A stretch of 64,000 nt of DNA from a virus (Duplodnaviria; Heunggongvirae; Uroviricota; Caudoviricetes): IMG/VR virus record IMGVR_UViG_2565956721_000002; one strand, written 5' to 3'. Shown one piece after another: positions 7,627-59,884 of this stretch; the first letter of the stretch is position 1; each line of letters begins with the position of its first letter. The notes under the pieces were generated by a model. It was given only the letters and a program-made list of their open reading frames with translations. It was not told the DNA's origin and did not search any database. The position numbers and the translations under genes are program-made.

Positions 7627-7654
7627 GATCTTATCGCCTACCGTTTCGGTTTAA
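7061..7654. repeat. in-frame tandem direct repeat, period 297 bp, inside sit (about 170 bp of each unit near-identical)
   Basis: acacgagaaacgtcccctaaattaagccgtttcattgcgtcaacaata... at 7061 recurs at 7358; protein shows RVATVDPVSRSVSALNRTIENSRPDF twice, 99 aa apart. Confidence 0.8.
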
Positions 7655-7707
7655 GTTTTTCTTCCAGTTTCTCCAACAGGAAAAACGCATAGGATTCAGT
7701 AAGCCTT

Positions 7708-8589
7708 TCAGCGTCCTGAATCGGTATACCCCCATACAAAACCAGGTTGGACACTAAGGTCTGATAGCTTTTCAATCCCCACCTGTGGAATGAAGTCGGT
7801 AGCCCGAAAGGGCACCCACAGACGGGTATACGCACCCTCTGTGGACTCCTTTGTATCCTGGTTTGGGCATTTGTGCGGCGGGAGACGAAGACGCATTTCG
7901 CCTTTATCGATGTAGCACGGTAAACCATGTTCGAGCTTTTCATGAGCCAGCCGGATGTGTGCCGCCAGCTTCATAAATTCAGTATCAATGGCCATCCGTT
8001 TGATCGTTTCATAACGACGCTCAGCCTGCTCTTCACGAGTACCGCTAACATCGTTATAAAGTTCACACTGATAAGCGAATTCCCAAAAACGCAAATCAAC
8101 GATCGCTTCTTTGAATTCCGCGTCGTCTTCAGGTGGCAATGCTGCTCGGCGCATCTCCAGCATTTCCATTGCCCAACCATCAAGCGGCACGATACGCCAT
8201 TGATAAGGCACGCCCTCTACAGACACCTCAATATCGTCAATGAACGGTTCCACTTCCAGGACCTGGATATCTTCAGCCAGAGCATTCATATCGCAATCGT
8301 AATAATGCTCTTTACCGCAATGTTTACAGGTGTAGGTAAATGTCTCGATCGGTGTTTCGCGGGAGCCAGTAAATATCCACCATAACGCGGTAATCCGGTC
8401 CTGTGCCGTCCATTTCAGTGGATCATGTTTCGCAGCTTCAGCCAGCAAGGCTTTTAAATACGCTGTTGTCTGCTGTTCTTGTTCCTCCGGTGTTATCGAG
8501 TTGAAACGCATCGCATCAGCAATATTTGGCTGACGGAACTGGATTAATTCAGTTGGCCGCGATGGTAGCGGGAAAAGGGGTAAAAGCAT
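7708..8589 (-). CDS. hypothetical virion-module protein (293 aa)
   Basis: ORF upstream of sit on same strand. Confidence 0.4.
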   Translation of the reverse strand: MLLPLFPLPSRPTELIQFRQPNIADAMRFNSITPEEQEQQTTAYLKALLAEAAKHDPLKWTAQDRITALWWIFTGSRETPIETFTYTCKHCGKEHYYDCDMNALAEDIQVLEVEPFIDDIEVSVEGVPYQWRIVPLDGWAMEMLEMRRAALPPEDDAEFKEAIVDLRFWEFAYQCELYNDVSGTREEQAERRYETIKRMAIDTEFMKLAAHIRLAHEKLEHGLPCYIDKGEMRLRLPPHKCPNQDTKESTEGAYTRLWVPFRATDFIPQVGIEKLSDLSVQPGFVWGYTDSGR

Positions 8590-8603
8590 CCTTGCTCCTT
8601 AAT

Positions 8604-9215
8604 TTAAAGCGAAAAACTAAAGCCCAGAAGGGAAGCTAAAGAACTTGAGGATTGGTTAAACGTGCTGTGCAACGCGAAGGTCATTGGGAATGACTTAAAT
8701 TCCGTAACCTGATCCCGCGCATAGGTGACATCGCCGGTAGTGACCGGGAATACCGTCATCTCATTTTCCAGTTTGGTTAAACCGGAGGACAGCAACCGAT
8801 AAATACGCACATTGAGCAAATATTTAGACGGTATATTCCCGGTACCGTCCGGATTGATCACCCGACTTTTTGCCGTCTTAAACCAGTCCAAAACGAGGCC
8901 ATCAACGGTATCCCTGACCATCATTGTTATCTGCCCAGGTGAACGCTCCGTTGGCTGAAGGATATTCCCTCCGCCGATTTTAATCGTTTCATATTCGATG
9001 CTGTAATCGTGGTAGGTAATGTCTTTAGCAAAGAAGTCTGCCCCCTCCAGACCATCAACTTCGACAGAGAACTGCCATCCTTGCGCGAACAGCATTTTGT
9101 TCATGATGATTGACGTCAGCTTGCCAACTTCCCGCTCACCAACGCCGGAGCCAAATAATGTCGTCGTTAATGCCGAAGATACATAAGACTTTACTGAAGC
9201 AACATTAAGCCCCAT
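8604..9215 (-). CDS. hypothetical virion-module protein (203 aa)
   Basis: ORF in same co-directional block. Confidence 0.4.
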   Translation of the reverse strand: MGLNVASVKSYVSSALTTTLFGSGVGEREVGKLTSIIMNKMLFAQGWQFSVEVDGLEGADFFAKDITYHDYSIEYETIKIGGGNILQPTERSPGQITMMVRDTVDGLVLDWFKTAKSRVINPDGTGNIPSKYLLNVRIYRLLSSGLTKLENEMTVFPVTTGDVTYARDQVTEFKSFPMTFALHSTFNQSSSSLASLLGFSFSL

Positions 9216-9945: not shown

Positions 9946-10980
9946 TCAAGCCTTAAGAGGCTTTGTGTATGTTCGTGTAATCCATCCAGTAATAAACTCG
10001 TCCCCTGATTTAACCTGCACGAAAAGCCATTGGCGATCTTTTTTATCTAAAACAGCCACTATAGTATTTTTGCCAATGCATTCAATCACCTCACTATTTA
10101 TAGAAGGACTGACGTGTAATCTTACGTTCTCACCAGTTATAAAACGAAAACCATTGAGATCTTCCCAACTAATTTCTTTGTTTTCTTTAATTAATTGTTG
10201 TTTTGATATTGGTTTATCCTCAAACAGAGATATAAAATATGATTCTGCCTTGTGTATTCCCAGCAAGGTTTTCTCTTTTCCGTAATCAATAAAAGCACCA
10301 AACACAACTTGAGAAAATATAACCATTAGTAACCATTGCAGTGGATAAGGAAGCTCTTTAAATGAATCAACAAACTTTGAGCTAGGTTTATTTAATCCTT
10401 TATTTTGAACATTACTTTTGGTGTGTGATGTTTCAGTAGCACCTTCAGCATAAGCCTGCGCAATAGATGAAATCCCCTGCTCTATTATTTGATGTAATGA
10501 AGCATTTCTTGTTCTAGCATAGTGATCTAGTACTTTCTTTATGTCTTGGCTTACATCTATTTTATAACTTGCACTTTGTTGTAATTCTTTAAGTATCGCT
10601 TGCATGTTATTTAAACCAGCTTGCTTATTAAGCACCTCAAGCTGTTTTCGTAATGGCATAGCTATTTCGGCCTGTTTCCTTAGCATTTGAATATATCTAT
10701 TTGCATCATGAGGGAAAAGAGCCTGAGTCTGTTTCTGTAAAATCGCGATATGTTCACGATACTTGCTGCCTATTCCAGCCAAGTTCGGTATACTAGCCAA
10801 TTGTTTTCGAAGAGAGTTACTAATTACAGCTTGTCTATTCAATCTTGGCATATTTTGAAAAGAATGTTTTTCTATTCCTAATTGTTTTTGCAAGATCGCT
10901 ACGTGATCTTTGTATGATGGAATGAGCACTGACTGTTTATACAGCAACTTCAACTCATTAGAATTAGTAATTTTTGTCAT
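9946..10980 (-). CDS. membrane-anchored protein with N-terminal internal repeats and C-terminal SH3b-like domain (344 aa)
   Basis: Repeated KYR(D/E)H(V/I)AILQKQ segments, one hydrophobic helix (LQWLLMVIFSQVVFGAFI), C-terminal SH3b-like stretch; AT-rich DNA. Confidence 0.45.
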   Translation of the reverse strand: MTKITNSNELKLLYKQSVLIPSYKDHVAILQKQLGIEKHSFQNMPRLNRQAVISNSLRKQLASIPNLAGIGSKYREHIAILQKQTQALFPHDANRYIQMLRKQAEIAMPLRKQLEVLNKQAGLNNMQAILKELQQSASYKIDVSQDIKKVLDHYARTRNASLHQIIEQGISSIAQAYAEGATETSHTKSNVQNKGLNKPSSKFVDSFKELPYPLQWLLMVIFSQVVFGAFIDYGKEKTLLGIHKAESYFISLFEDKPISKQQLIKENKEISWEDLNGFRFITGENVRLHVSPSINSEVIECIGKNTIVAVLDKKDRQWLFVQVKSGDEFITGWITRTYTKPLKA

Positions 10981-11054
10981 ATTATTCCATTTCTATAATA
11001 GAATATTACGCAACCAATGTTTTATTGATTGCGTTAATCTTTAACACAGAAAGA

Positions 11055-11531
11055 TCATTTGCCTCGTTTAATACATCCATCCATTTTGGCTTGTTGATAC
11101 AACTTACTTAGCCCAGAAAGAGGGAATGTAGCAATTTTTTCATTATCAACATAAGCATCAATCATATTAGCATTTGAATCTGCTGCATCTTGCCAAAAGG
11201 CATACCACCAAGAATCTCCAACCATTGATCCAAGATTTCTAAAAGGATATTGATCACCATCTATAGTTAATACTATTTTATTCTTGTCAGCATTATACTC
11301 TTTTTTATTATTCGACGAACTTAGCAACAAGCCTAAACTACCTGCACTATCTGGTGAACCATACATGAATCCCATATCACATAAAAAACTTATCTTATCA
11401 CCATTATGATTATGGATTGTATATTCTCTCCCCCCTCTCTCTTCAATTACATTCCATTGTAGAGGATCAATTTTTGCAAATGTTCCTGCTGAAACTAACG
11501 ATACAAATAATAAAAACCATCTCATATTCAT
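11055..11531 (-). CDS. secreted protein with signal peptide (158 aa)
   Basis: N-terminus MNMRWFLLFVSLVSAGTFA is a typical Sec signal peptide; AT-rich. Confidence 0.45.
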   Translation of the reverse strand: MNMRWFLLFVSLVSAGTFAKIDPLQWNVIEERGGREYTIHNHNGDKISFLCDMGFMYGSPDSAGSLGLLLSSSNNKKEYNADKNKIVLTIDGDQYPFRNLGSMVGDSWWYAFWQDAADSNANMIDAYVDNEKIATFPLSGLSKLYQQAKMDGCIKRGK

Positions 11532-11553
11532 TCTTTTCGCTTCTTATCTGTAA

Positions 11554-11904
11554 TTATTCTGCAATATCATTTGCCCATTGCACGGCAGCAAAATGAGTAC
11601 CCAAACCACTCAGGAAAGCAATTACCCCCAAAACAATACTTGCTGCTGTTGATTCAAACAAAGTACCAATACTATAGCCAATAGCTCCCCATACTAAGCT
11701 AAATACAATCATCAATGGTATTGCTAGAAATTTTATTCTTAAACTAAAAATCAGTCCAAGAAAAGAACCGCCAAAGGCCCACCATGATTTAGACATTAAA
11801 CCTATCAGTATTGACAGAATTCCTATTTCAATAAAGAGAATATTAGATTGCTCTTCATTGAATTTCGCATTTGTTACACCTTTACGAACATGTTCAGATG
11901 ACAT
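11554..11904 (-). CDS. small integral membrane protein (116 aa)
   Basis: Three predicted hydrophobic helices; first gene of the AT-rich cassette. Confidence 0.4.
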   Translation of the reverse strand: MSSEHVRKGVTNAKFNEEQSNILFIEIGILSILIGLMSKSWWAFGGSFLGLIFSLRIKFLAIPLMIVFSLVWGAIGYSIGTLFESTAASIVLGVIAFLSGLGTHFAAVQWANDIAE

Positions 11905-46881: not shown

Positions 46882-47100
46882 ATGTGGCCATTCCGACGGA
46901 AATATCACTACTGGCTGATCGCCTTTGTTACGCCGACCGGCGGTATCAGGCATGTCATCACCAGGTATCGCAACAAGAGACTCACCTTAGCCAGAATTTT
47001 ACAGGCTGCCATAGGTGAGGGACTGGATACAAATTGCGTAGTCCTTCCTCCTTCATACTTAGGAAAAATGACCGAAGCACAAGCTAATACGGAACTTTGA
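46882..47100 (+). CDS. small hypothetical protein (72 aa)
   Basis: ORF only. Confidence 0.25.
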   Translation: MWPFRRKYHYWLIAFVTPTGGIRHVITRYRNKRLTLARILQAAIGEGLDTNCVVLPPSYLGKMTEAQANTEL

Positions 47101-47101
47101 A

Positions 47102-48364
47102 ATGATCACTTCAGCACAAAACCAATCAATCGAAAATGTATCTATCCCTGACGTCCTGAATGCCGGTATCCCGGCCATTATCCAGAACATCCGGGCCGCG
47201 CAACGCCGCGTTAGTTGTGATGACCTCACAGCGCGTTTTTTTGATAATGCGGTTCAGTCAGCGGAGATGCTTCACGCACAGCTTATTGATGTTTATAACG
47301 CAGAAGCTGATAGCCATAACTCCCTGGTAGATGCAGCTGAAAATATGCAGTTGGATCTCGGTCTGAAGGGTAAAGAAATTGAAGAGCTTCAGCTACAAAT
47401 TGAACATTTGAAACGCCAGCAACAGGACGCGATCGACAATGCGACGCATGACGCCAACCAGCGTGCTGATAATGCCGAACGTATAAGCATTGAGCTGGAA
47501 ACAAAACTCAATGAAATGACCGCGATGGTTGAACTGCGGAACTCACAGATTTCAACGCTAAAATCTCAATATAAAGAGATCATGAAACTTGATCCTTTTA
47601 ACCTTGAGAAACGCTATAACAAAGCTAAAAGCGAGCGACAGGAACTGCGTAAGCAGGTCGCCGACCTTAACCAACAGCTCAAAAAAACTATTAAAGATGC
47701 AAGCGAAGCGCGCGTGGCATTTGCTAATAAAAAAGCAGAGGTTACCGCGCTGGTTAATGAGAATGCCAAATTTGCGACGCTCAAGAAGGAAATGTATGGC
47801 ATTACTGAGCGCCGTTTCCCTGCAAGCAAACTTCATCCGACGTTAGGGCAAATCTCCTTCTTCCCGCGCCTCCTGGCTTATGGGATCTCATCGCCTAAAG
47901 AGTTCAATAACGAGCGTCCTTATATCGTTTCTAAGCTGGACTTTGCTTATCAGTTCTGCTGCGACATGGGCTATGCCATTGATATCCGAATCAACGAATG
48001 GTTGATGCCAAACTTCCAGCCGTTGGCAATTTTCCGCGAGTTCCAGCCGGAAGGTTGGGTAGAGTTCTTCCATGAATTGATCTGTAAAGAGATGGAAAGC
48101 CGCCGCCCGGAATTGGTCCGTCGAGTTGAGTGGGCGCAAGAGGTTATGTTGGCAGATGCAGAGCTGCCGTTCGAACCGGAATTCATTGATGATCTGGCAA
48201 CTAAAGGGTTGCATACCCTGTTTGATGTGGTTACCCGCCGTCATGAGCAGTTGGTTGTCGAATTGGGTTTAGAGGAAACAGCGGCAAGAAGACTTCTCGA
48301 TGTTTGCTATGCACGTAGCGATGCATGGGAAAAAGAGAACGGCGGCACTATTTACGTCCGCTGA
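47102..48364 (+). CDS. coiled-coil protein with C-terminal globular domain (420 aa)
   Basis: N-terminal half heptad-like and Q/E/K-rich; no recognised catalytic motif. Confidence 0.4.
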   Translation: MITSAQNQSIENVSIPDVLNAGIPAIIQNIRAAQRRVSCDDLTARFFDNAVQSAEMLHAQLIDVYNAEADSHNSLVDAAENMQLDLGLKGKEIEELQLQIEHLKRQQQDAIDNATHDANQRADNAERISIELETKLNEMTAMVELRNSQISTLKSQYKEIMKLDPFNLEKRYNKAKSERQELRKQVADLNQQLKKTIKDASEARVAFANKKAEVTALVNENAKFATLKKEMYGITERRFPASKLHPTLGQISFFPRLLAYGISSPKEFNNERPYIVSKLDFAYQFCCDMGYAIDIRINEWLMPNFQPLAIFREFQPEGWVEFFHELICKEMESRRPELVRRVEWAQEVMLADAELPFEPEFIDDLATKGLHTLFDVVTRRHEQLVVELGLEETAARRLLDVCYARSDAWEKENGGTIYVR

Positions 48365-48436
48365 TAGTTACAGCGTCACTTTTAATGCTGGTGGAGTGCG
48401 CCCACCAGCATTTTTTTCGTCCAATGAGGAGGGCAT

Positions 48437-48943
48437 TTGAGTATTTTCAATAAACACGCACACCAGGAACGTCCGTATATCGTCATAGTCGATATTGATG
48501 GAACAATATCAGAGGCAACTGAAGACAGACTGCATTTGCTTCCGCCACCAGGTAAAGGTGCATTAACAAAGGACTGGAACGAGTTTAATCTCGCCTGTGA
48601 CACCGATACTCCCATCACTCCGGTTATTGATATGGTGCGCCAGTTATTTAACGTTTACACGGTCTGGTTTGTAACCGGGCGCTGTGAGATCGCAAGGGAT
48701 AAAACACGAGCCTGGCTGCGGAAGTACGTAACAAACGGGGCTGAGCCTTTGCTATCTATGCGTCCTGCCACCGATGACAGAAATGACGGTCCAGCAAAGA
48801 TTGATCTCCTGAAGAAAATTGGTCTAAGTAAAATTGCGTTCGCGCTGGAAGATAAGATTGAAGTGGCGCGTGTTTTCAGGAGTCACGGCGTACTTACGTT
48901 AATGGTCAGGGAGTATGAAAACGCGCTTCTCCATCAACAATAA
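48437..48943 (+). CDS. HAD-superfamily phosphatase-like protein (168 aa)
   Basis: Motif I IVIVDIDGTIS (DxDGT); small Rossmannoid size. Confidence 0.5.
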   Translation: MSIFNKHAHQERPYIVIVDIDGTISEATEDRLHLLPPPGKGALTKDWNEFNLACDTDTPITPVIDMVRQLFNVYTVWFVTGRCEIARDKTRAWLRKYVTNGAEPLLSMRPATDDRNDGPAKIDLLKKIGLSKIAFALEDKIEVARVFRSHGVLTLMVREYENALLHQQ

Positions 48944-48959
48944 TTGCTCTAATAAATAT
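48943..48959 (+). promoter_or_regulatory. C1 repressor operator
   Basis: attgctctaataaatat. Confidence 0.65.
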
Positions 48960-49137
48960 TGATTTTTAAAACAGAGAAAGTGAAAATAAAAACATGCCGC
49001 AAGGCGCGGCATGTATCCAATCAATCACAGGAGCTGAAAATATGAACACGGCATTCAAAATCATTATGGCCGCGATCTATTTCTGGCTGTTCTCTATCAC
49101 TTTTGGCGGCATCGTCGCGCATGGGTAAGGGGGATGC

Positions 49138-49866
49138 ATGAAAGGCGAAGTGAAAGAGCGCGGCATGATTTTCAACGATGAGATGGTCCGAGCCATCCTC
49201 GAAGGAAGGAAAACGCAGACGCGGCGGATAATGAAAAATCAGCCTGCGGAAGTTGGTCCAGAAGCACCAGTGATGGTTAGGGAAATTGGTGCAGGTTTTC
49301 AGTGGTACGGGGCTGATGGTGTAAGCAGTGTTTTCAATTGCCCCTTTGGTATCGTCGGCGATCGAATTTGGGTTCGTGAAACATGGGCGATATTAGGCAA
49401 TGAAGATGGTTGCAGTGTGGACTGGAACGACAACCTTTGTCGTGGCGATGAGAAGAACGCAGCAAGGATTTATCGGGCCAGTTGTGAGCAAAAGCCTGGT
49501 GATTACGGTTTATGGTCGATACCCGATGATGCCGACTGGAAACCTCACACTGTGAATGAAAAGTTTGATGGTGGGTGGCGTCCATCAATTCACATGCCGC
49601 GATGGGCATCACGCATCCTGTTGGAAATTACCAACGTGCGCGTTGAGCGGTTGAACGATATCAGCGAATGCGATGCAAGGGATGAGGGCGTTCCGCCTGC
49701 TGGAAGTTTGCTTCCTGATCACCCGGGAACATTCCTTACTCCCAAGGGGGATTTCGCAATGGCCAAGGTTGCGTTCCAGCGTCTGTGGGAATCCATCTAT
49801 GGTGAAGAAAGCTGGAACGCTAATCCCTGGGTGTGGGTAATCGAGTTTAAGCGCATTCAGGAATAA
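49138..49866 (+). CDS. conserved phage protein with N-terminal GRKTQTRR motif (242 aa)
   Basis: MIFNDEMVRAILEGRKTQTRR recurs in prophage proteins; fold not certain. Confidence 0.35.
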   Translation: MKGEVKERGMIFNDEMVRAILEGRKTQTRRIMKNQPAEVGPEAPVMVREIGAGFQWYGADGVSSVFNCPFGIVGDRIWVRETWAILGNEDGCSVDWNDNLCRGDEKNAARIYRASCEQKPGDYGLWSIPDDADWKPHTVNEKFDGGWRPSIHMPRWASRILLEITNVRVERLNDISECDARDEGVPPAGSLLPDHPGTFLTPKGDFAMAKVAFQRLWESIYGEESWNANPWVWVIEFKRIQE

Positions 49867-49949
49867 ACCGTGAGTATGCATCAAATCGTCAGTTTTTCAG
49901 GTGGACGAGCATCGGCCTGTCTCGTTCATCTGTTCGAATAGGTAGTGGC

Positions 49950-50153
49950 ATGACAATCGTAAAAACCCATACCGGCACCGTGATCACCAAAGACGGTCCG
50001 CAGGTAAAAAAACTGCACCAAACAGAGCGGATGTGGGTCGTCGGCAAAAACGAGTTTTACCACAAAGAAACTGGACGCCGCCATTTTGCAGAAAATACGC
50101 GCCGCCGACTGCTGTTAGACACCATCAAGCCTATCGAGGTGAAGCATGTTTAA
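49950..50153 (+). CDS. small hypothetical protein (67 aa)
   Basis: ORF in tightly packed + strand array. Confidence 0.3.
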   Translation: MTIVKTHTGTVITKDGPQVKKLHQTERMWVVGKNEFYHKETGRRHFAENTRRRLLLDTIKPIEVKHV

Positions 50154-50385
50154 ACAGAACGAAAAGGCTATCGCTCAAATTGCTGATTATATCCCGCGTG
50201 CGTGCCGGGGTATGCAGTTGCAGGAAGCCAAAGCGCGCCTGGAGAAAAAAATTGCGCTCTATATTGATGACGGCTGTGATGCTGCTGTTCTTAACGCAGC
50301 GTTCGCGCCAGCTCTTAACAGTCATACGCGGGAGTCTTTTTTTTCGCGCATCGCAGCGCAGATCCGTAAAGGAGGCAACCAGTGA
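50146..50385 (+). CDS. small hypothetical protein (79 aa) ending ...QIRKGGNQ
   Basis: C-terminal motif and junction sequence shared with next gene. Confidence 0.35.
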   Translation: MFKQNEKAIAQIADYIPRACRGMQLQEAKARLEKKIALYIDDGCDAAVLNAAFAPALNSHTRESFFSRIAAQIRKGGNQ

Positions 50386-51107
50386 GCGAAATTAACTATA
50401 AAGAACTGCGCGAGGCGGCGAAACAGGCAACGCAAGATGAATGGGTAGCATATATTTTGCCGGGTCATAACGGCATTTATCCTGCGCGCACGTCTGAGGG
50501 TAGGCATTGCGGATACTTTATTGACTGGCCTAGCGTCTGTCAGGGGCGGGAGAGCATCAACATGAGCATCAGAACCTACGCAGTGAATTGCAATGACGCA
50601 TGGCTAAACACCGAAGGTGATGACATCTCCGGCTCATACGTTAAGTACAAAGACCATCAGGAAGTGGTTGCCGCTCTTGAGGCCAAGTGCGCGGCGCTGG
50701 CGGCGGAGAATGAGCTGGCTCGTAAGGCAGTTCAGGCATTCTGCGATGTTGTTGGCGACAACACCGAGGTTATCGCTGAGGAGGTTGGGCGAGATGGCGT
50801 TCTGGTTATTTTGGGGGCCATGAAGGCAACAGGAAATATTTCAGCCACCGATGCTTTTCTGGCTGAAATTCGTGCGGAAGCACGCAACGAGGGGATTAAC
50901 TATACCGCCAGCCGTCTTGCTGCTGCGTTCAATCACGGATTTATCAATAAATCTTTGCGTGAAGTTTTCGACGTTACACGCATGATTTTGTCAGCGAAAG
51001 AAGAGTTGGCTAATGAACCGCATCCGATTGATGGCCTGTCCGGTGAATATGCGGAGAAATCCCTTGAAGAATGGGCGGAACAGATTCGCAAAGGAGGCAA
51101 GCAGTGA
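50382..51107 (+). CDS. Ea22-like prophage protein (241 aa, GTG start)
   Basis: N-terminus MSEINYKELREAAKQATQDEW typical of lambdoid Ea22 family; RBS aaaggaggcaaccaGTG. Confidence 0.5.
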   Translation: MSEINYKELREAAKQATQDEWVAYILPGHNGIYPARTSEGRHCGYFIDWPSVCQGRESINMSIRTYAVNCNDAWLNTEGDDISGSYVKYKDHQEVVAALEAKCAALAAENELARKAVQAFCDVVGDNTEVIAEEVGRDGVLVILGAMKATGNISATDAFLAEIRAEARNEGINYTASRLAAAFNHGFINKSLREVFDVTRMILSAKEELANEPHPIDGLSGEYAEKSLEEWAEQIRKGGKQ

Positions 51108-51403
51108 GTGTATATCTTATTGATAAACGTCGACGTGGGCAACAAATACCACCTGTAGGAATTCCGAATCACACATGGTTTTGCGTACTTGATATCGATG
51201 GTATGGATGCGTTGGTTGACACTCGTCATTACTGCGATACCGCAACAGCTACTCCGGCGAAAGCAAAGAAAATGGCTGCTCTGATAGAAAACTGGACTCC
51301 ACCTGATGGTTGGTGCAATGGGAATGATCGAGATTGGCATGAAAAAATGAAGGGCTATATCTGCGATTTCTTACGTAAATGCAACGGATTCAGGGTGATG
51401 TGA
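51104..51403 (+). CDS. hypothetical protein (100 aa, GTG start)
   Basis: RBS aaaggaggcaagcaGTG identical in form to previous junction. Confidence 0.35.
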   Translation: MSVYLIDKRRRGQQIPPVGIPNHTWFCVLDIDGMDALVDTRHYCDTATATPAKAKKMAALIENWTPPDGWCNGNDRDWHEKMKGYICDFLRKCNGFRVM

Positions 51404-51404
51404 C

Positions 51405-51713
51405 ATGAACAAGATTGACTATCAGGCACTGCGTGAGGCGGCAGAGAAGGCAACGTGGGGAGACTGGGACTCATATAAACCACACCGTGGCGCACGTGGT
51501 TATGAGGTCCGACTAAGTAGTCAGGCCATTGCGCAACACGTTCTGAAAAACAACGCTGAATTTATTGCTGCCTTTAATCCAAAGATTGCTTTGGCACTAC
51601 TGGATGAACGGGAAAGGAACCAGCAATACATCAAATCACGCGACCAGGAGAACGAGGATATTGCGCTAACTGACGGTGTAATTGTTAATAAGAAAGAAGG
51701 AAACGCGGCATGA
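51405..51713 (+). CDS. Ea22-like N-terminal domain protein (102 aa)
   Basis: ALREAAEKAT...ALLDERERNQQYIKSRDQENEDIALT matches lambda Ea22 N-region from memory. Confidence 0.55.
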   Translation: MNKIDYQALREAAEKATWGDWDSYKPHRGARGYEVRLSSQAIAQHVLKNNAEFIAAFNPKIALALLDERERNQQYIKSRDQENEDIALTDGVIVNKKEGNAA

Positions 51714-52174
51714 CCACTATTACCAATAAGAAACAGTATCCCAGCGAGCAATATCTTAATGAGCTGATCACCAACATAGAGTTTGCCGCAAGGGCACCAG
51801 TTGAAGTCGTGAGAGCAATGGCAGCAGAGCTACAGAAGCGGCGCGAAGCTGATAGTGCAGAACCAGTTGCTTATATTTTCAAACATCCGGCCGGGAAATT
51901 ATTCTGGGCTTTAACGGATGAAAGCAATAAAGAGCAAGCGGACGTTATTCCTGTTTATGCTGCCGCGCCTGCGTCGGTTGTGCCGGATAATGCATCAGAG
52001 CCTCTTGCTTATGCTTACAAAGAGCTTACGCCTGAGATTATGCGCAACCATTTAGCTGTATTCGAGCGATATGGAATAGCCCCAAACGATAGCACTACCA
52101 CAATTCAGGCACTGCGAATCGCGCTGGATGGTATAGAGCGGAGCGACGCCATGCTTCAGGGTAAAGGAGGGTGA
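51710..52174 (+). CDS. hypothetical protein (154 aa)
   Basis: N-terminus MTTITNKKQY paralogous to 52887 gene start. Confidence 0.35.
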   Translation: MTTITNKKQYPSEQYLNELITNIEFAARAPVEVVRAMAAELQKRREADSAEPVAYIFKHPAGKLFWALTDESNKEQADVIPVYAAAPASVVPDNASEPLAYAYKELTPEIMRNHLAVFERYGIAPNDSTTTIQALRIALDGIERSDAMLQGKGG

Positions 52175-52175
52175 T

Positions 52176-52391
52176 ATGGCTATTGCCGCAAGTTACACAA
52201 TGCATCTCTATTGTGACTGCCGTCAGTGCACGGAAGGTGTATATCCAGTGCCAGACTTCGGTGAGTATATAGGTACGTCATGGGCTGGCTGTGCAAAAGA
52301 GGCCCGTAAAGACGGGTGGCGAATAAGCAAAGACAAAACGCGTGCTTTTGCGCCAGGGCATAAAATTTTGAGGAGCAACAAAGGAGAGTGA
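52176..52391 (+). CDS. small Cys-containing protein (71 aa)
   Basis: ORF; CDCRQC motif. Confidence 0.3.
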   Translation: MAIAASYTMHLYCDCRQCTEGVYPVPDFGEYIGTSWAGCAKEARKDGWRISKDKTRAFAPGHKILRSNKGE

Positions 52392-52392
52392 T

Positions 52393-52611
52393 GTGCCTAC
52401 ATTATTCAGAAAAGAATATCCGCGAAAAAGTAGAGCGACAGAATTTTTGTTTCTCATTCTGTTTATCGTGTTGATGATACCGATATCCCCGTTAATTCTG
52501 GTATGGGGAATCGGAAAAATAATTGAGCCAGTTATTGAATTGTATAACGACGTGGTATGGGCTCCGTTCAACACACTGCACAATAAAATTAATCCGTATA
52601 AGGAAAACTGA
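52393..52611 (+). CDS. small membrane protein (72 aa)
   Basis: One hydrophobic helix. Confidence 0.3.
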   Translation: MPTLFRKEYPRKSRATEFLFLILFIVLMIPISPLILVWGIGKIIEPVIELYNDVVWAPFNTLHNKINPYKEN

Positions 52612-52612
52612 T

Positions 52613-52876
52613 ATGGCAACTTTGACAAAAAAAGAACAGGCATGGTTGAACGAATTACAGGACGTTCTTGATCGCTGTCCATCACCGAAAAAAATTGGTT
52701 TTTACACCATTGGCGATAAAAGCATTTACCTGTATGACCTGCGCCGCATGGATGAAATCATGGAGGCTCTTGATAATCGTTCGTCAATGGATTGGTGTGT
52801 TGCTGTCCATGATATGAATGCCGGATTTGATGAAAAGATTTTATTCCCCTCATCAGTTGAAAGTACAGCAGGATAA
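52613..52876 (+). CDS. small hypothetical protein (87 aa from ATG 52613)
   Basis: RBS aaggaaaa; abuts previous stop. Confidence 0.35.
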   Translation: MATLTKKEQAWLNELQDVLDRCPSPKKIGFYTIGDKSIYLYDLRRMDEIMEALDNRSSMDWCVAVHDMNAGFDEKILFPSSVESTAG

Positions 52877-52886
52877 GGACTAACAC

Positions 52887-53774
52887 ATGACCACTATTAC
52901 CAAAGAGCGACTGCTGACAATCAGGCAGTGGCGCGAAACATACGGACCTGGTAGCAACGTTGTACTGCCAGCAGAAGAAGCGGAAGAACTGGCACGAATT
53001 GCTCTGGCATCGCTGGAGCAGAATGTACTATCGGGCAACTCTCCGCTTATTCCTGGTGAAGTGTTGTCCGCAATCCGGGAGGTTGCCAGGATTCGTGCCG
53101 ATTTCGATGATTTTGACGGTGACAGGCGAGGTATCGGTGATTGTCTGGATGAGGCCGAGCAAGAGCTTATCGTTACCATTAACAAATATGCCAGTCAGTT
53201 GGCAGCAGAACCGATAGCGACTAATGACGTTCGAGAGCAAACAGCCGTTCCGCCAATACAGGCTGATGTCGCGCAAGCAATTGAAAATCTCAAGCAGAAG
53301 TTAGTGGAATGCAATCGCTATAACTACTGCGCAGATGCAGTGAAGAACGTAGAGGATGCCTGCCGTGCTGTTAGCTATAGCCAAGCCGACAATCAGCCAG
53401 CATCTGGCAACCAGGCTGCCGAATCCAATCGCGGTAATGAGTGGACTGGCAATCCTGATATTGATAACGCCATCATCATGCTCGACCGCATAGATACGCT
53501 GGAAAATTGCGATGATGACCGTATTGAGGCTGTTAAGGCTGTTTTGCGTAGACTGGCTGGCAACTCTCCGGTAACTCCGGATAGTTGGATAAGCTGTAGT
53601 GAGCGAATGCCCGCTCAAGATGATTGGATTTTAATTTATTCAAAGCACGGCGAGTATATGGCAGGCCAGGTGCAAGGGGAATACGTGGAGTTGAGCGACG
53701 GCACTTTATCGTGGTTAGGGAACGCCTTGTTCTGGATGCCGCTACCAGAACCGCCGCAGGAGGTGAATCAATGA
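52887..53774 (+). CDS. DUF551-type prophage protein (295 aa)
   Basis: C-terminal WISCSERMP...WLGNALFWMPLPEPP resembles DUF551 of lambdoid ead/ea22 regions. Confidence 0.45.
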   Translation: MTTITKERLLTIRQWRETYGPGSNVVLPAEEAEELARIALASLEQNVLSGNSPLIPGEVLSAIREVARIRADFDDFDGDRRGIGDCLDEAEQELIVTINKYASQLAAEPIATNDVREQTAVPPIQADVAQAIENLKQKLVECNRYNYCADAVKNVEDACRAVSYSQADNQPASGNQAAESNRGNEWTGNPDIDNAIIMLDRIDTLENCDDDRIEAVKAVLRRLAGNSPVTPDSWISCSERMPAQDDWILIYSKHGEYMAGQVQGEYVELSDGTLSWLGNALFWMPLPEPPQEVNQ

Positions 53775-53838
53775 GCTGGCCTGAAGCATTCACCACGGTA
53801 GGAATTGTGATGGCGGCAGCACTGGGTTTGTATTCAAT

Positions 53839-54090
53839 TTGTCGCTGGTGGTAACGATGGGAAAAATAACTTTTGTAGTCGAATTTGAGGATGGCAAAGA
53901 GCCACCTGTTAGCGCCAATCTTGATGTTGCTGGTGGCAGGCTTGTTTCGGTTCTATTTGGTGACTACCGAGATGACTTCTTCCAACCAGAAGAAGTTGAT
54001 GTAGTGCGAGAGGCATTAAACGAGTTAAGTGTTGATAACGATGATGCTCATGCGGAAATCATCCAAAAAATGGAACTGCTAACTCACTAA
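53839..54090 (+). CDS. small hypothetical protein (83 aa)
   Basis: ORF only. Confidence 0.3.
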   Translation: MSLVVTMGKITFVVEFEDGKEPPVSANLDVAGGRLVSVLFGDYRDDFFQPEEVDVVREALNELSVDNDDAHAEIIQKMELLTH

Positions 54091-54268
54091 ATTATCAATT
54101 ATGGTGCTATCACCTACGACACCGAGAGAAAATTTATAATGTCAAAAGTAAATGTTTTGATTTTTTCAGCAATTGTTGGCTTTGGTTTTACTGCCGGAGT
54201 GCAGATTTATATTACGTGGGAAAAAATCATCAACTACGCATGGAGTTGTTTTATTAAGTGAGGTAAGT

Positions 54269-54562
54269 ATGTGGAGAGGTAATAGTCATGGCAAAAGCCA
54301 GATGATACTTACCGAATATCAGTTTGACCATAAAACCAATAAATCACGTTCAGTATATTTGCTTCGGCACAATAGCCGCGTAAGGAATACCGTGCTGGAG
54401 CAAAATCTGACTGTTGAAATAGATAATTACGGGGGCTTCAAGCCAACAATTTCGCTTGATGATTTTCCTCGTGGTTTAAGCGAAAGAGAAGCAATGCTGA
54501 AATTAGCAGAATGGCTACAAAGATTAAGCATTGCTATTGAAGATAACTGGTCTGAACCTTAA
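54269..54562 (+). CDS. small hypothetical protein (97 aa from internal ATG)
   Basis: RBS gaggtaag before ATG 54269. Confidence 0.3.
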   Translation: MWRGNSHGKSQMILTEYQFDHKTNKSRSVYLLRHNSRVRNTVLEQNLTVEIDNYGGFKPTISLDDFPRGLSEREAMLKLAEWLQRLSIAIEDNWSEP

Positions 54563-54568
54563 ATTTAT

Positions 54569-54943
54569 ATGATGACACTAAAACATTTTCTTGACCGCCC
54601 ATTATGGGCGGCAGCCGCAGGCTATGACTTTAATTATATGGATTGCATGTCTTATACCGCCAATGCATACGACTATTCCTTCAGTCTGCTGCTTAATTCT
54701 TTAAGAATATTGCCGCAAACAGAAGTTGGAGAGCTTCATTTATGGCTATTGGGCTTTATCGCGGCTGGAGTTGGTATTGCTGTATGGCCTTTTATTTTCT
54801 GGCTGGTGGCTGTTGTAGTGTGGTTTAAGTGCAAGACGTACCGGAGAAAGTATTTCTTAGGTGATGGAATGACTGATATTGCCAAAATGAACATTGAAAA
54901 ATGGACTAAGGAATGTGAAAAGAAATGGCGCAAAAAGAAATGA
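54569..54943 (+). CDS. membrane protein (124 aa)
   Basis: Two hydrophobic helices. Confidence 0.35.
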   Translation: MMTLKHFLDRPLWAAAAGYDFNYMDCMSYTANAYDYSFSLLLNSLRILPQTEVGELHLWLLGFIAAGVGIAVWPFIFWLVAVVVWFKCKTYRRKYFLGDGMTDIAKMNIEKWTKECEKKWRKKK

Positions 54944-55857
54944 CCAGAATCACTGAAGAGCGTATATCAGAGATTATTTCCCGTATCGAAATGTATGGTC
55001 ACGGTGCTGGATATACGGCAGATGAAGTATTGGCACTTGCCCAAATGGCTTTGGCGGCTTGCAAAGATGATAAAAAAATGAAGTTTATCGACTTGTTAGT
55101 GAAGGAACTGCCTAAGTGCGGCGGGTGGCCTGATGGAATGAGTTATTGTTACCTACCCAGTGTCAATTTAATGGCACCATGCGCGACTTTTGCTTTTGGC
55201 TCAGACCACAAAAAAGACACTTTCTTTGGGCGCAATTTTTGTTGTGAGATTGAGCTTCCAATTGGTGACCTTGATAGCGATGAATACCAGTCAGTTGTCA
55301 CTCGCGAACAATACGAATCAGCTCTCATAGCGTCGCAGAAAGTCGAGTTCAATGGTGATGAACTTGAAAGTAAGACTTACAGGTTGGATTTTGGGCAATG
55401 GCTGGAACAGCAACGCGGGAAAATCGATGTGGACTGTGGTTGTGTGTCCACTGAAACATTCATGCACTGGCTGCGGGTAGCTTACGAGGCTGGCAACTAT
55501 CCGGATATTCCGGATAGTTCGGTGCCAGCACCAGGAAAGGGCGTCACCGGTGAACGTATCCGAATTAAGCCGCATGTTTATCGCGAACTGGTTAACCGTC
55601 TCCACGATACAGCGATCAAGTGTGCTGGCACCCAGCAATTACGAGAAAGAATTAGCCGTGTTTTGGGCGACGTTATTACACCAGATCATCATAAACAAGC
55701 CGAGAAAAGTGGCCTGGAAAGGTGTCACCTTGAGGCGGCATTAAACATTAAGCCGGGGCATACGCTTGGCATTATTGATGCACTATTGGTTCATAAGATG
55801 GCCAGGGCTTTATTGCCGCTGGTGGATGCTGGCGATACAAGCGAGGGTGAAGTATGA
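54925..55857 (+). CDS. hypothetical protein (310 aa)
   Basis: ORF overlapping neighbours. Confidence 0.4.
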   Translation: MAQKEMTRITEERISEIISRIEMYGHGAGYTADEVLALAQMALAACKDDKKMKFIDLLVKELPKCGGWPDGMSYCYLPSVNLMAPCATFAFGSDHKKDTFFGRNFCCEIELPIGDLDSDEYQSVVTREQYESALIASQKVEFNGDELESKTYRLDFGQWLEQQRGKIDVDCGCVSTETFMHWLRVAYEAGNYPDIPDSSVPAPGKGVTGERIRIKPHVYRELVNRLHDTAIKCAGTQQLRERISRVLGDVITPDHHKQAEKSGLERCHLEAALNIKPGHTLGIIDALLVHKMARALLPLVDAGDTSEGEV

Positions 55858-56216
55858 GAGTTGCAGATCACATCAAACACCTTGAAAGAATTATCGAAAA
55901 CGGTGAACTCTTAAGAGATCAGATGAGACGCACGGCAGAAGTCAGAGAGGCGATAATCCGCAGTCAGGCTGGTAAATTAAAGCAATTATCAGAGATTAAC
56001 GCGCTATACAAGAACAGACGTAACCGGGCGGCGCTGCGGCTTCAGAAAGCACGTAATGAAATTAAATTGGTGGAGGCAAAACTGAAAAAACAGATTCAGC
56101 GTTACGATCAGCAAGATGCTTTTTATGCCGCCATCAAGGCGGCTGCTAATGAAATAGGCATCTGGAAGTTGCTGGTGGAGAAAGCAAAGACGAAGTTAAA
56201 TGCCAACGAAAGCTGA
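55854..56216 (+). CDS. coiled-coil protein (120 aa)
   Basis: Heptad-rich, basic. Confidence 0.35.
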   Translation: MRVADHIKHLERIIENGELLRDQMRRTAEVREAIIRSQAGKLKQLSEINALYKNRRNRAALRLQKARNEIKLVEAKLKKQIQRYDQQDAFYAAIKAAANEIGIWKLLVEKAKTKLNANES

Positions 56217-56877
56217 ACTACAGGTACCCACCAGCACATACAGAAAATGATTGTTTCCACATCAAGGAGATTTTAATGTTTCACTGAACATTAAGTAAGC
56301 CAGTGCATAATTCCATTTTTTACTGACCTTAAAAGCAAAATCAAAACGATGATGAGGATGATCGCCAGAATCTGGCTAATAACAGGCGCATCTAAAAATG
56401 CACTCAGGAACTGAAAAAAAGCAGTCATTAAGGTGGTTCCTTGTCAAATGTAAAGGAGCACTTGCTCACGTTGACGTAGAAACCCAACCCCTATATAGTT
56501 GGATTCGGTGAAAGAAAGTCGTTAACGTGAGCTTACGGCACATGTTTTCGGAACAACATCAGGGAACGGCTAATTCCTTGATGCGGATGGGGTCTGTAAT
56601 GCAGACCCTATCTATTAACGTCATGATTGCATCTCAAATTTTCTCCTTATCTTCATTAATCAAAATTCATTTCATTTGTGAAACATCACAATATTTAGAA
56701 AATGGCCCTCTTGCAAGTGCATAACTTTGTGGATAAATCAGGAAGAAAAAAGTTGATTCTGCGCACGGCAAGGCAGATAAGCTGTGCACAAAAATCAATG
56801 GGAAAAGAAAAAAAATTAAAAGTTACTTTGCTGGTTAAATAATAGTCGTTACGCAATTGTTCTGGATGGGATTTGAT

Positions 56878-57129
56878 ATGCACGATTGGAATATTGCAGC
56901 TAAAAGTCAGGAAGAACGGGATAAGGTTAACGTTGATCTGGCTGCCAGCGGTGTGGCGTACAAAGAGCGATTGAACATACCTGTCATAGCTGAACAGGTA
57001 GCCCGCGAGCAACCAGAGAATCTGCGCACCTATTTCATGGAACGGTTACGGCACTATCGGCAGTTAAGCCTCCAGTTGCCAAAAGGGAGCGATCCGGTGT
57101 ATCAGAACGAGGATGCACCAAAAAAATAA
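56878..57129 (+). CDS. hot: homologue of DNA polymerase III theta subunit (83 aa from internal Met)
   Basis: [33 protein letters not shown] closely resembles E. coli HolE. Confidence 0.75.
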
Positions 57130-57216
57130 CGGCAAGATGGGGGAGAAATGTGATTAGCCCCCAGCGTGGCGCGCCTACAAACCCCGCTTTCACAAACTAT
57201 GCCTTTTCAATGTATA

Positions 57217-57232
57217 CTGTATGAATAAACAG
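57217..57232 (+). promoter_or_regulatory. LexA (SOS) box upstream of humD
   Basis: ctgtatgaataaacag fits CTGT-N8-ACAG. Confidence 0.6.
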
Positions 57233-57252
57233 TATTATTGAGGTAAAACGCT

Positions 57253-57642
57253 ATGGGCTTCCCTTCTCCTGCGGCGGATTATGTTGAAAGCCGAATTTCT
57301 CTTGATCAGCAGATAATTAGACATCCTTCAGCGACCTACTTCATGCGGGCAGCTGATAGCCATCACCGTGAGGGAATATTGCAGGGTGCTTTGCTGGTGG
57401 TTGATTCCTCGCTTACTCCGGTTGATGGTTCTCTGCTTGTGTGCGCTATGGAGGGTGAATATCGCATAAAGAGATACAGGAAGTATCCGCGCCAGCACCT
57501 GGAGGACTTAAGCACCGGGAAGAAAGAGGCGTTACCAGTAGATGACGATGGATACACGGGCAGTAATGCTGTTTTTGGTGTGATCACTCATGTCATCAAT
57601 GATGCCCGAAGTGGGGAATTTGATGATTGTCCGGTTATTTAA
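57253..57642 (+). CDS. humD: UmuD'-like S24 peptidase-family protein (129 aa)
   Basis: LexA/UmuD C-domain pattern; SOS box upstream. Confidence 0.75.
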   Translation: MGFPSPAADYVESRISLDQQIIRHPSATYFMRAADSHHREGILQGALLVVDSSLTPVDGSLLVCAMEGEYRIKRYRKYPRQHLEDLSTGKKEALPVDDDGYTGSNAVFGVITHVINDARSGEFDDCPVI

Positions 57643-57714
57643 GCTGCAAAGTGCTGGTGCTTTATGCCTGTGAAGTTTATAATTGTGTACACATAACGAG
57701 TACACGAGGTGTTT

Positions 57715-57936
57715 ATGCAATCCATTAACTTCCGTACCGCGCGTGGCAACCTTTCTGAAGTGCTCAACAATGTTGAAGCCGGGGAAGAGGTTGAAATCAC
57801 CCGCAGGGGCCGTGAGCCAGCAGTAATTGTCAGCAAGGCTACTTTCGAAGCCTACAAAAAAGCGGCGCTGGATGCTGAATTTGCATCCCTGTTTGACACC
57901 CTGGACTCCACCAACAAGGAACTGGTTAACCGATAA
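57715..57936 (+). CDS. phd: antitoxin Phd (73 aa)
   Basis: [32 protein letters not shown]... recognised as P1 Phd. Confidence 0.9.
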
Positions 57937-58316
57937 TGAGGCATATATCACCGGAAGAACTTATTGCGCTTCATGATGCGAATATAAGCCGCTACGGCGG
58001 CCTGCCGGGAATGTCAGATCCGGGTAGGGCAGAGGCCATTATCGGGAGAGTTCAGGCCAGAGTTGCCTACGAAGAGATCACCGACCTTTTCGAAGTCTCC
58101 GCCACCTACCTGGTGGCTACGGCGAGAGGGCATATATTCAATGATGCCAATAAGCGTACCGCGCTAAACAGTGCGCTGCTATTTCTACGCCGTAACGGGG
58201 TGCAGGTATTTGATTCACCTGAACTGGCAGACCTTACTGTAGGCGCTGCGACTGGTGAAATCGCCGTATCTTCAGTAGCAGAAAAGCTACGTGAACTATA
58301 TGGTTCCAAGACTTGA
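57936..58316 (+). CDS. doc: toxin Doc (Fic-family kinase, 126 aa)
   Basis: Recognised as P1 Doc; start overlaps phd stop. Confidence 0.9.
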
Positions 58317-59867: not shown

Positions 59868-59884
59868 ATTGCTCTAATGTATTG
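59868..59884 (+). promoter_or_regulatory. C1 repressor operator upstream of lpa
   Basis: aattgctctaatgtatt. Confidence 0.6.

Follow-up and report, generated by a model that had tools for sequence, protein, structure and literature searches.

The pmgT/hea locus of a P1-like phage-plasmid as a variable early accessory operon, probably shortened by deletion in reference P1

A survey of P1-like phage-plasmids places the pmgT–humD interval among eight highly variable regions (as 'variable region 8') and reports that in JL22 pmgT is 'replaced by a series of gene clusters' (PMC9603915), and about 30% of the genes of P1-like elements have been assigned to a class that recombined recently with unrelated elements (PMC10879196). 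The genes pmgT, pmgU and pmgV were all scored as non-essential by CRISPR interference (PMC10695390). In P7, the classic sister phage of P1, the 'hea' operon (AF503408, upf86.8–upf90.8) lies between pap and hot with a C1 operator right after the pap stop codon; its GenBank record describes Op(hea) as 'predicted to regulate expression of hea operon' and Upf88.3 as 'similar to Ead protein of lambdoid bacteriophage P22'. Ea22-like, DUF4014 and DUF551 genes are also annotated at this locus in the D6 and RCS47 records. A similar set of genes is found in the exo-xis ('ea') region of lambdoid and Shiga toxin (Stx)-converting phages (e.g. PA2 gp23–gp16, lambda ea22, P22 ead/eaA), where Ea22 has a three-part architecture (N-terminal segment, long coiled coil and C-terminal domain) and is modular and mosaic, with a variant that has a DUF551 C-terminus (PMC10834534). 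Here we describe the corresponding locus in a 64,000-nucleotide stretch of viral DNA (IMG/VR record IMGVR_UViG_2565956721_000002), the whole of which we refer to as the window. The block of genes at 49950–56216 is the P1-family pmgT/hea operon (variable region 8) and thus an instance of a known feature, because the P7, D6, RCS47 and RefSeq annotations and the published survey already describe the locus.

We consider it highly probable that the block is a variable and dispensable early accessory operon located between pap and hot of P1-family phage-plasmids, that it is remodelled by cassette exchange and by deletion, and that the long form is older than the form in P1. The block sits between pap (48437–48943) and hot (56857–57129), and homologues of P1 pap, hot, humD, phd and doc surround it, with HumD, Phd and Doc encoded downstream. 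The flanks at 47000–49832 and 55482–57132 align with P1 (NC_005856) at 98.2% and 97.8% nucleotide identity, in agreement with the P1-like backbone of the original prediction, which had been made from the sequence alone. The array of about fifteen tightly packed + strand genes that it described is likewise borne out, as open reading frame (ORF) calls give fifteen + strand genes (g2–g16) that fill 49950–56216. Overlaps (ATGA or GTGA) or 1-nt gaps join g2 through g11, and the only larger gaps are between g1 and g2 (83 nt), g11 and g12 (82 nt) and g12 and g13 (178 nt, containing a 40-codon ORF at 54139–54261). The genes are listed here with lengths in amino acids (aa).

49138–49866, + strand: g1, 242 aa, opens the operon; intact counterpart of P1 PmgT residues 1–232; phrog_874, no match in Pfam
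49950–50153, + strand: g2, 67 aa; phrog_1226, 96% aa identical to PA2 gp23
50146–50385, + strand: g3, 79 aa; phrog_1344, 90% aa identical to PA2 gp22
50382–51107, + strand: g4, 241 aa, Ead/Ea22 variant with its own C-terminal region; PF13935 over residues 2–133 (E=1.4e-16), phrog_368 and phrog_614
51104–51403, + strand: g5, 99 aa, DUF7739; PF24881 (E=7.6e-19)
51405–51713, + strand: g6, 102 aa, truncated Ea22 chimera; PF13935 (E=1.5e-24)
51710–52174, + strand: g7, 154 aa; phrog_6847, 98% aa identical to PA2 gp20
52176–52391, + strand: g8, 71 aa, Cys-rich; phrog_926, 93% aa identical to its PA2 homologue, also in D6 and RCS47
52393–52611, + strand: g9, 72 aa, DUF4014, hydrophobic; PF13198 (E=1.7e-25), 92% aa identical to PA2 gp18
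52613–52876, + strand: g10, 87 aa; phrog_1714
52887–53774, + strand: g11, 295 aa, EaA-like multi-module protein with C-terminal DUF551; PF04448 over residues 233–291 (E=3e-10)
53857–54090, + strand: g12, 77 aa; phrog_3876, among the comparators in P1-like plasmids and SJ46 only
54269–54562, + strand: g13, 97 aa; phrog_1258, P1-family elements only
54569–54943, + strand: g14, 124 aa, predicted membrane protein; phrog_2638, P1-family elements only
54925–55857, + strand: g15, 310 aa; its C-terminal ~165 aa form a module conserved across the P1 family
55854–56216, + strand: g16, the final gene, 120 aa with a predicted coiled coil; 100% aa identity with P1 PmgV

Alignment to NC_005856 shows that a 5,649 bp segment of the window (49833–55481) is missing from reference P1. 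The two flank alignments converge on P1 record position 85182, inside pmgT, with at most 1 bp of microhomology, and the ends of the missing stretch are as follows.

49832..49833: left end of the stretch missing from P1
55481..55482: right end of the stretch missing from P1; downstream of it, pmgT reads g15 out of frame

Direct translation shows that P1 PmgT (309 aa) consists of g1 residues 1–232 (99% identical) followed by 77 residues of out-of-frame g15, and P1 PmgU (111 aa, GTG start) corresponds to g15 residues 200–310 at 95.5% identity. In all other family members examined g1 is intact, as is the C-terminal module of g15. The interval from the pap stop codon to the pmgV stop codon is 1,623 bp in P1 and 7,273 bp in the window, and it ranges from 4,511 to 9,101 bp in seven other P1-family loci (P7, SJ46, MH422554 and four plasmids); D6 and RCS47, each without one of these anchor genes, fall outside this measurement. 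A 201-bp probe spanning the P1 junction matches 12 phage records and 218 plasmids, but it is uninterrupted only in the three P1 reference records and in five of the plasmids; in the other plasmids its two halves lie apart. The block is thus not colinear with reference P1, and the lambdoid reading of it stands on this count, although the direction of change appears to be the reverse of the predicted acquisition by a P1 backbone. The simplest reading would be a deletion in reference P1 rather than an insertion in the window, with P1 representing the derived state and pmgT and pmgU being deletion products. That five natural plasmids have the P1 junction suggests that the deletion is a lineage trait and not necessarily a laboratory artefact.

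Two further observations concern the P1 records. In the reference annotation pmgT and pmgU overlap in different frames (10489–11558, NC_005856 segment numbering), which is explained by the pmgT tail being an out-of-frame portion of a g15-type gene and pmgU its in-frame 3′ remnant, to which a GTG start was assigned. A record of an Escherichia phage P1 of 88,362 bp (OP279344.1) matches only nt 1–54 of the 201-bp junction probe, around 81342–81395, which suggests that this strain has a different and larger deletion at pmgT. We also considered repeat-mediated deletion in P1, as a repeat (D1) has its start 6 bp right of the junction; we rejected it because P1 keeps both of the flanking sequences and has no more than 1 bp of microhomology.

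Judged by sequence, the block is two-thirds lambdoid-type and one-third P1-specific. The part containing g2–g11 matches 516 phage records, mainly of Stx-converting and other lambdoid phages, and Stx phage PA2 matches the segments 49933–50413 and 51710–52624 at 92.7% and 95.3% nucleotide identity, as the lambdoid affinity proposed for the block would have it. The gene order (g2, g3, Ea22, g7, g8, g9 through to DUF551) is identical to that of PA2 gp23–gp16, and five of the products are closely related to their PA2 counterparts (96% aa identity for g2, 90% for g3, 98% for g7, 93% for g8 and 92% for g9), while the Ea22 and DUF551 genes are 44–50% identical to those of PA2. For the right part at 53775–55481 (g12–g14 and the 5′ part of g15), the only phage records that match are ten from the P1 family. 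The array g2–g11 is a syntenic version of the Stx-type lambdoid exo-xis region, with g12–g16 specific to the P1 family.

There are several departures from the lambdoid arrangement. In PA2 the array lies downstream of recT, exonuclease and ssb genes, i.e. in the exo-xis region, with an antirepressor and the prophage integration end on its other side, whereas the window block is without these flanks and has neither exo nor xis alongside. It is under P1 C1 control, in contrast to CI at pL for the exo-xis region, and it has two Ea22-type genes, one of them truncated, where the exo-xis region has one. What the two have in common, beyond gene order, is an Ea22 N-terminal and coiled-coil module with swappable C-termini and early repressor-controlled expression. 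The conserved lambda cassette orf60a–orf63–orf61, which lies next to exo, is absent from the window; a tblastn comparison of all window genes with lambda 27700–32100 matches only g6, on ea22. In the P1-like plasmid NZ_CP069885 a DUF1382 gene of the lambda orf63 family lies directly after the g1 homologue (2459–2650, segment numbering), so the lambdoid exo-xis repertoire at this P1 locus is wider than the window shows.

The absence of the block from reference P1, the conserved order and 90–98% aa identity of g2, g3, g7, g8 and g9 with PA2, and the wide distribution of the modules that flank the junction in g6 (see below) could together be taken to mean that a lambdoid ea/Ea22 module was recently inserted into a P1-like backbone by mosaic acquisition, to act there as an anti-defence or host-takeover island. 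These modules occur at 2,609 chromosomal and 583 plasmid positions, spread over 2,041 of 5,426 complete E. coli genomes, and being mostly chromosomal they point to the lambdoid pool as the larger one and the likelier donor of individual cassettes. We nonetheless judge a recent insertion improbable, as two genes that are intact elsewhere are broken at the P1 junction, which is a deletion scar, arrays are present here in 213 of the 218 matching plasmids as well as in P7, D6, SJ46 and RCS47, and g12–g15 are specific to the P1 family. Moreover, the identity to PA2 (92–95%) is lower than that of the P1 backbone (98%), and there is thus no sign of a recent single insertion; a single insertion event is largely refuted. 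With regard to an anti-defence role, ten of the proteins are without a match in PADLOC (see below), and there is no paper linking Ea22 to anti-defence among the literature matches listed.

The preferred reading, of a variable operon changed by exchange and deletion, also applies to comparisons within the P1 family. The P7 hea operon and the window have the same terminal genes, the g15 C-terminal module (the Upf89.5 C-terminus, and PmgU in P1) and g16 (Upf90.8, PmgV), and P7 also has an Ead/Ea22-like gene. They differ in that most of g2–g5, g7–g10 and g12–g14 are missing from P7, and that P7 joins g11-type and g15-type modules in one protein of 432 aa whereas the window keeps them as separate genes. 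In P1 the interior is wholly lost relative to the window. The closest relatives are IncY P1-like plasmids such as p91 (NZ_CP023381) and phage vB_EcoM-813R1 (ON470617), which are 99.9% nucleotide identical over 47000–51670 and 52609–58306, and near-identical genes in RefSeq plasmids are already named 'ead/Ea22-like family protein' (twice) and 'DUF551 domain-containing protein'. Between these segments, window 51671–52608 (the g6 tail, g7, g8 and g9) stands in place of 289 bp of p91 and resembles pF16EC0211, FDAARGOS_1289 and PA2.

The window's whole arrangement is present in no record of the phage, plasmid and complete E. coli collections, the best records having 85% coverage at 99.9% identity. 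Different segments resemble different relatives, with p91 the closest for g1–g6 and g10–g16, pF16EC0211 and PA2 for g7, and FDAARGOS_1289 and PA2 for g8–g9, and mosaicism was expected by the original prediction. Two features mark places of exchange or loss.

49876–49941, + strand: scar of a 3′-phosphoadenosine-5′-phosphosulfate (PAPS) reductase (PP-loop) gene, a 21-codon remnant encoding MHQIVSFSGGRASACLVHLFE*, recognised by comparison with pF16EC0211
51592–51670, + strand: conserved Ea22 nucleotide patch encoding LLDERERNQQYIKSRDQENEDIALT, ending at the universal breakpoint 51670|51671

Four kinds of joint can be recognised. The first is the Ea22 patch, 79–120 bp in length and ending at 51670, where every alignment stops; it is present at 82–100% identity in p91, pF16EC0211, FDAARGOS_1289, SJ46, P7, RCS47, D6 and PA2. 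A second joint is a 28-nt repeat (D2, at 50359–50386 and 51081–51108) at the ends of g3 and g4, which encodes QIRKGG(N/K)Q* and within which lie the ribosome-binding site and GTG start codon for the gene that follows; the g3 C-terminus is QIRKGGNQ*, and the ribosome-binding site for g4 is within this tail. A GIRIKGE-type tail ends the Ea22 proteins of lambda, PA2, P7 and p91. The third joint is the 18-nt MTTIT start, CATGACCACTATTACCAA, common to g7 and g11, and by our own calculation about 4e-4 repeats of this type are expected by chance in 7.4 kb. The fourth is a 32-nt linker present in g11 (53555–53586) and g15 (55488–55519), and it is at this linker that D6 orf104 changes from g11-like to g15-like. 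P7 Upf89.5 is a four-piece hybrid composed of g11 residues 1–44 (95%), a g7-like stretch, g11 residues 49–235 (61%) and g15 residues 148–310, the last corresponding to Upf89.5 residues 270–432 at 98% identity. In both P7 Upf89.5 (5029–6327) and D6 orf104 (7587–8669; segment numbering in each case), modules of the g7, g11 and g15 types are joined in frame.

The shared start of g7 and g11 had been put forward as N-terminal paralogy (51710 versus 52887). The nucleotide repeat is exact, but past those five residues the proteins have no significant similarity. A better-supported candidate for N-terminal paralogy is the pair g11 and g15, which are 39% identical over 46 aa (E=9e-4) and both match phrog_3323. 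The modules of g11 are common to P7 Upf89.5 and D6 orf104; g11 homologues form at least 8,000 clusters on both plasmid-sized and chromosomal contigs, under the names 'DUF551' or 'Phage EaA', and the 848 homologues of g15 are 182–437 aa long with the C-terminal half in common.

The second type of change is loss, of which the window has two instances. One is in the 83-nt spacer between g1 and g2, which encodes the first ~19 codons of the PAPS-reductase gene joined to its last codons. Relative to pF16EC0211 (2695–3483, segment numbering), in which the gene is intact, 789 bp is missing; an intact copy also precedes g2 in Stx phage PA2. The other is g6, which direct translation shows to be the first 88 residues of the 185-aa p91 Ea22 in frame with the last 13 codons (DGVIVNKKEGNAA) of a P7 Upf89.0-type gene. 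No record of the phage or plasmid collections has the g6 junction contiguous, nor does any of the 5,426 complete E. coli genomes, whose best matches come as two pieces 480–740 bp apart; the junction is therefore private to this element. Intact but unannotated 171-aa ORFs of the Upf89.0 type, the gene type fused into g6, are present in CP088429 (4784–5299) and MH422554 (5559–6074; both in segment numbering).

The array behaves as an accordion, with cassettes and protein modules exchanged at short conserved joints (the 79-bp Ea22 patch to 51670, gene ends that double as ribosome-binding sites, the MTTIT start and the 32-nt g11/g15 linker), and with illegitimate deletion also removing material. 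Three deletion scars can be seen, one in reference P1 by loss of 5.65 kb to give the pmgT fusion and the pmgU remnant, a second in the window and p91-type relatives by loss of the PAPS-reductase gene to give the 21-codon stub, and a third in the window alone by loss of an Ea22 C-terminus and an Upf89.0-type gene to give the chimera g6.

With two deletion scars in the window and others at the same locus in reference P1 and P7, a truncated chimera in g6, and a block that is dispensable in P1, it could be argued that the array is mostly decaying cargo, made up of gene fragments that serve no selected function in this element. We regard this as very improbable, since 14 of the 15 genes are full-length compared with homologues in independent elements, the frames are open with translational-coupling overlaps and ribosome-binding sites retained, and near-identical arrays are present in dozens of plasmids from various hosts and countries.

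The operon begins immediately downstream of pap.

48943–48959, + strand: C1 repressor operator (P1 OpmgT/Op88; P7 Op(hea)), one mismatch to consensus, with the PpmgT promoter region directly downstream
48994–49128, + strand: predicted membrane ORF of 44 aa in the operon leader, annotated in p91 and SJ46 ('membrane protein')

The operator directly follows the pap stop codon, and window 48934–48994 differs from the P1 OpmgT/PpmgT region at one of 61 nt. There are ten C1 operator matches in the window compared with 0.25 expected, and the next one downstream is at 59868. The block had been placed between C1-regulated modules, but it is located inside one C1-controlled transcription unit, and g1 through g16 form one close-packed + strand unit that starts at this operator and promoter. 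Since the operator and promoter are near-identical to those of P1, the operon is expected to stay off in the plasmid prophage and to be turned on by C1 inactivation or upon infection. In the leader between the operator and g1 there is also an inverted repeat with a 10-bp stem (48992–49014), which overlaps the start of the 44-aa ORF and scores as an intrinsic terminator on the minus strand only, where no gene is evident.

The position of the operator also bears on the names pmgT, pmgU and pmgV ('putative morphogenetic'), according to which the block would have a function in virion morphogenesis. The P1 and RCS47 annotations and the UniRef name 'Morphogenetic protein' for g15 homologues are in keeping with this, and knock-down of pmgU reduces plating about 5-fold, although the gene was still scored as non-essential (PMC10695390). 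A morphogenetic role is nevertheless highly unlikely. P1 forms virions despite the 5.65 kb deletion and broken pmgT and pmgU, all three pmg genes were non-essential in the same study, relatives that are viable differ freely in gene content, the left part has its homologue in an early, non-structural lambdoid region, and the operator is an early one, the nearest late promoter (LPhot) being downstream of pmgV in the P1 annotation. Taken together, the early operator, the P1 deletion and the fact that the genes are dispensable contradict the label.

The gene assignments are in part those anticipated, with two genes of the Ea22 N-terminal domain family and one DUF551-like C-terminus, now identified as g4 and g6 (PF13935) and g11 (PF04448). 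The Ead_Ea22 scores are 61.7 bits for g4 and 87.6 bits for g6, both above the cut-off of 27, and the DUF551 match of g11 scores 41.2 bits against a cut-off of 22. Both genes are Ea22-type as was proposed, but the two motifs quoted for them are both from g6, the corresponding string in g4 being ELREAAKQAT. The match of g6 to lambda Ea22 covers residues 1–66 (E=1.5e-19), whereas BLAST aligns only residues 1–21 for g4, which has about 110 residues past the Pfam match that are unrelated to the lambda Ea22 C-terminal domain.

What the products do can be approached by analogy with related proteins, from which the only experimental evidence for these families comes and which points to the lysis–lysogeny decision and to host replication. 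Ea22 of lambda and Stx phages favours lysogeny and forms tetramers (PMC7093339, PMC10834534), and the exo-xis region as a whole shifts the lysis–lysogeny balance (PMC3824215). Overexpression of the E. coli prophage genes yfdQRST, of which YfdS is a DUF551 protein, inhibits initiation at oriC, and a yfdS mutant is H2O2-sensitive (PMC4776307). By extension, the products of the block would be early accessory modulators of host physiology, the phage–host relationship and the lysis–lysogeny decision that act after derepression; they would not be virion 'morphogenetic' proteins, and none would be required for lytic growth.

A more specific proposal is that P1-like phage-plasmids and lambdoid prophages use this shared cassette array to trade early host-takeover or counter-defence effectors. 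The Ea22 N-terminal coiled-coil module and the MTTIT/EaA-type N-module would each be an oligomerisation scaffold for swappable C-terminal effectors, with the conserved DNA encoding it acting as the recombination joint, and at least one of g2–g15 would neutralise host defence or reprogramme replication or transcription on derepression. We consider this proposal rather unlikely.

Several points weigh against the interpretation of the block as an early accessory operon with an older long form. First, an ancestral long form is secure for intact g1 and g15 only, and this does not fix which cassettes lay between them in the P1 ancestor. The literature that we checked, which did not extend to the P1 genome paper of Lobocka et al. 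2004 (PMC523184), contains no explicit statement that pmgT and pmgU of P1 are deletion products. Second, a single transcript of the whole array from PpmgT would follow from the gene packing and from + strand terminators being no more frequent than chance; terminator-like sites are at chance level overall (9 on both strands versus 8.9 expected), none notable inside the block, and the gaps at g1/g2, g11/g12 and g12/g13 (82–178 nt) could hide internal promoters. Third, the functional part is by analogy, as no protein of the block has a characterised close homologue. The Pfam labels are only of the DUF type or Ead_Ea22, a search of PADLOC-DB v2 gave no match at E≤0.01 for g1, g3, g4, g5, g7, g10, g11, g13, g14 or g15, a PDB sequence search of g1, g4, g11 and g15 gave nothing at E<0.3, and NCBIfam gave sub-threshold matches for g16 only. 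An AlphaFold2 model of g15 (24-sequence alignment) has a mean predicted local distance difference test score (pLDDT) of 51 and is confident only at residues ~50–135, and that of g11 (25 sequences) has a mean pLDDT of 41; the best Foldseek match of the low-confidence g15 model to the PDB is at E=0.68.

All of the genes fall in PHROG families of unknown function except for g9, whose label, 'released from the phage upon host infection', is uninformative. Relaxing the Pfam threshold to E≤1 for the unassigned proteins and P7 Upf89.0 returned noise only, and did not confirm guesses that g1 is an ASCH-domain protein and P7 Upf89.0 a PD-(D/E)xK nuclease.

The G+C content is 0.33–0.42 in g9, g10 and g12–g14 and in the 40-aa ORF at 54139–54261, and 0.44–0.51 in the other genes. 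The G+C-poor cassettes span 52393–52876 and 53857–54943, and their composition is consistent with a different origin. Downstream of the block lxr is missing from the window, such that the 696-bp lxr interval of P1 (12835–13530, NC_005856 segment numbering) is replaced by 67 bp at 57133–57199. The same arrangement is seen in p91, which aligns colinearly across this hot–humD spacer.

The block is not a new kind of system, and the useful yield is a corrected reading of pmgT and pmgU together with a map of the joints and scars at the locus. A large family of phage-plasmids that disseminate resistance genes has P1 as its reference genome. The P1 entries for pmgT and pmgU appear to represent a fusion and a remnant, and the 'putative morphogenetic' label has no support. 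Where P1 serves as the yardstick, pmgT is described as replaced by a gene cluster, when the opposite reading is simpler. The locus is also a clear small-scale case of genes moving between plasmid prophages and integrated lambdoid ones, with joints that can be identified. The shared modules are present in about 38% of complete E. coli genomes, and cassettes that are this abundant and of unknown function are reasonable candidates for functional screens.

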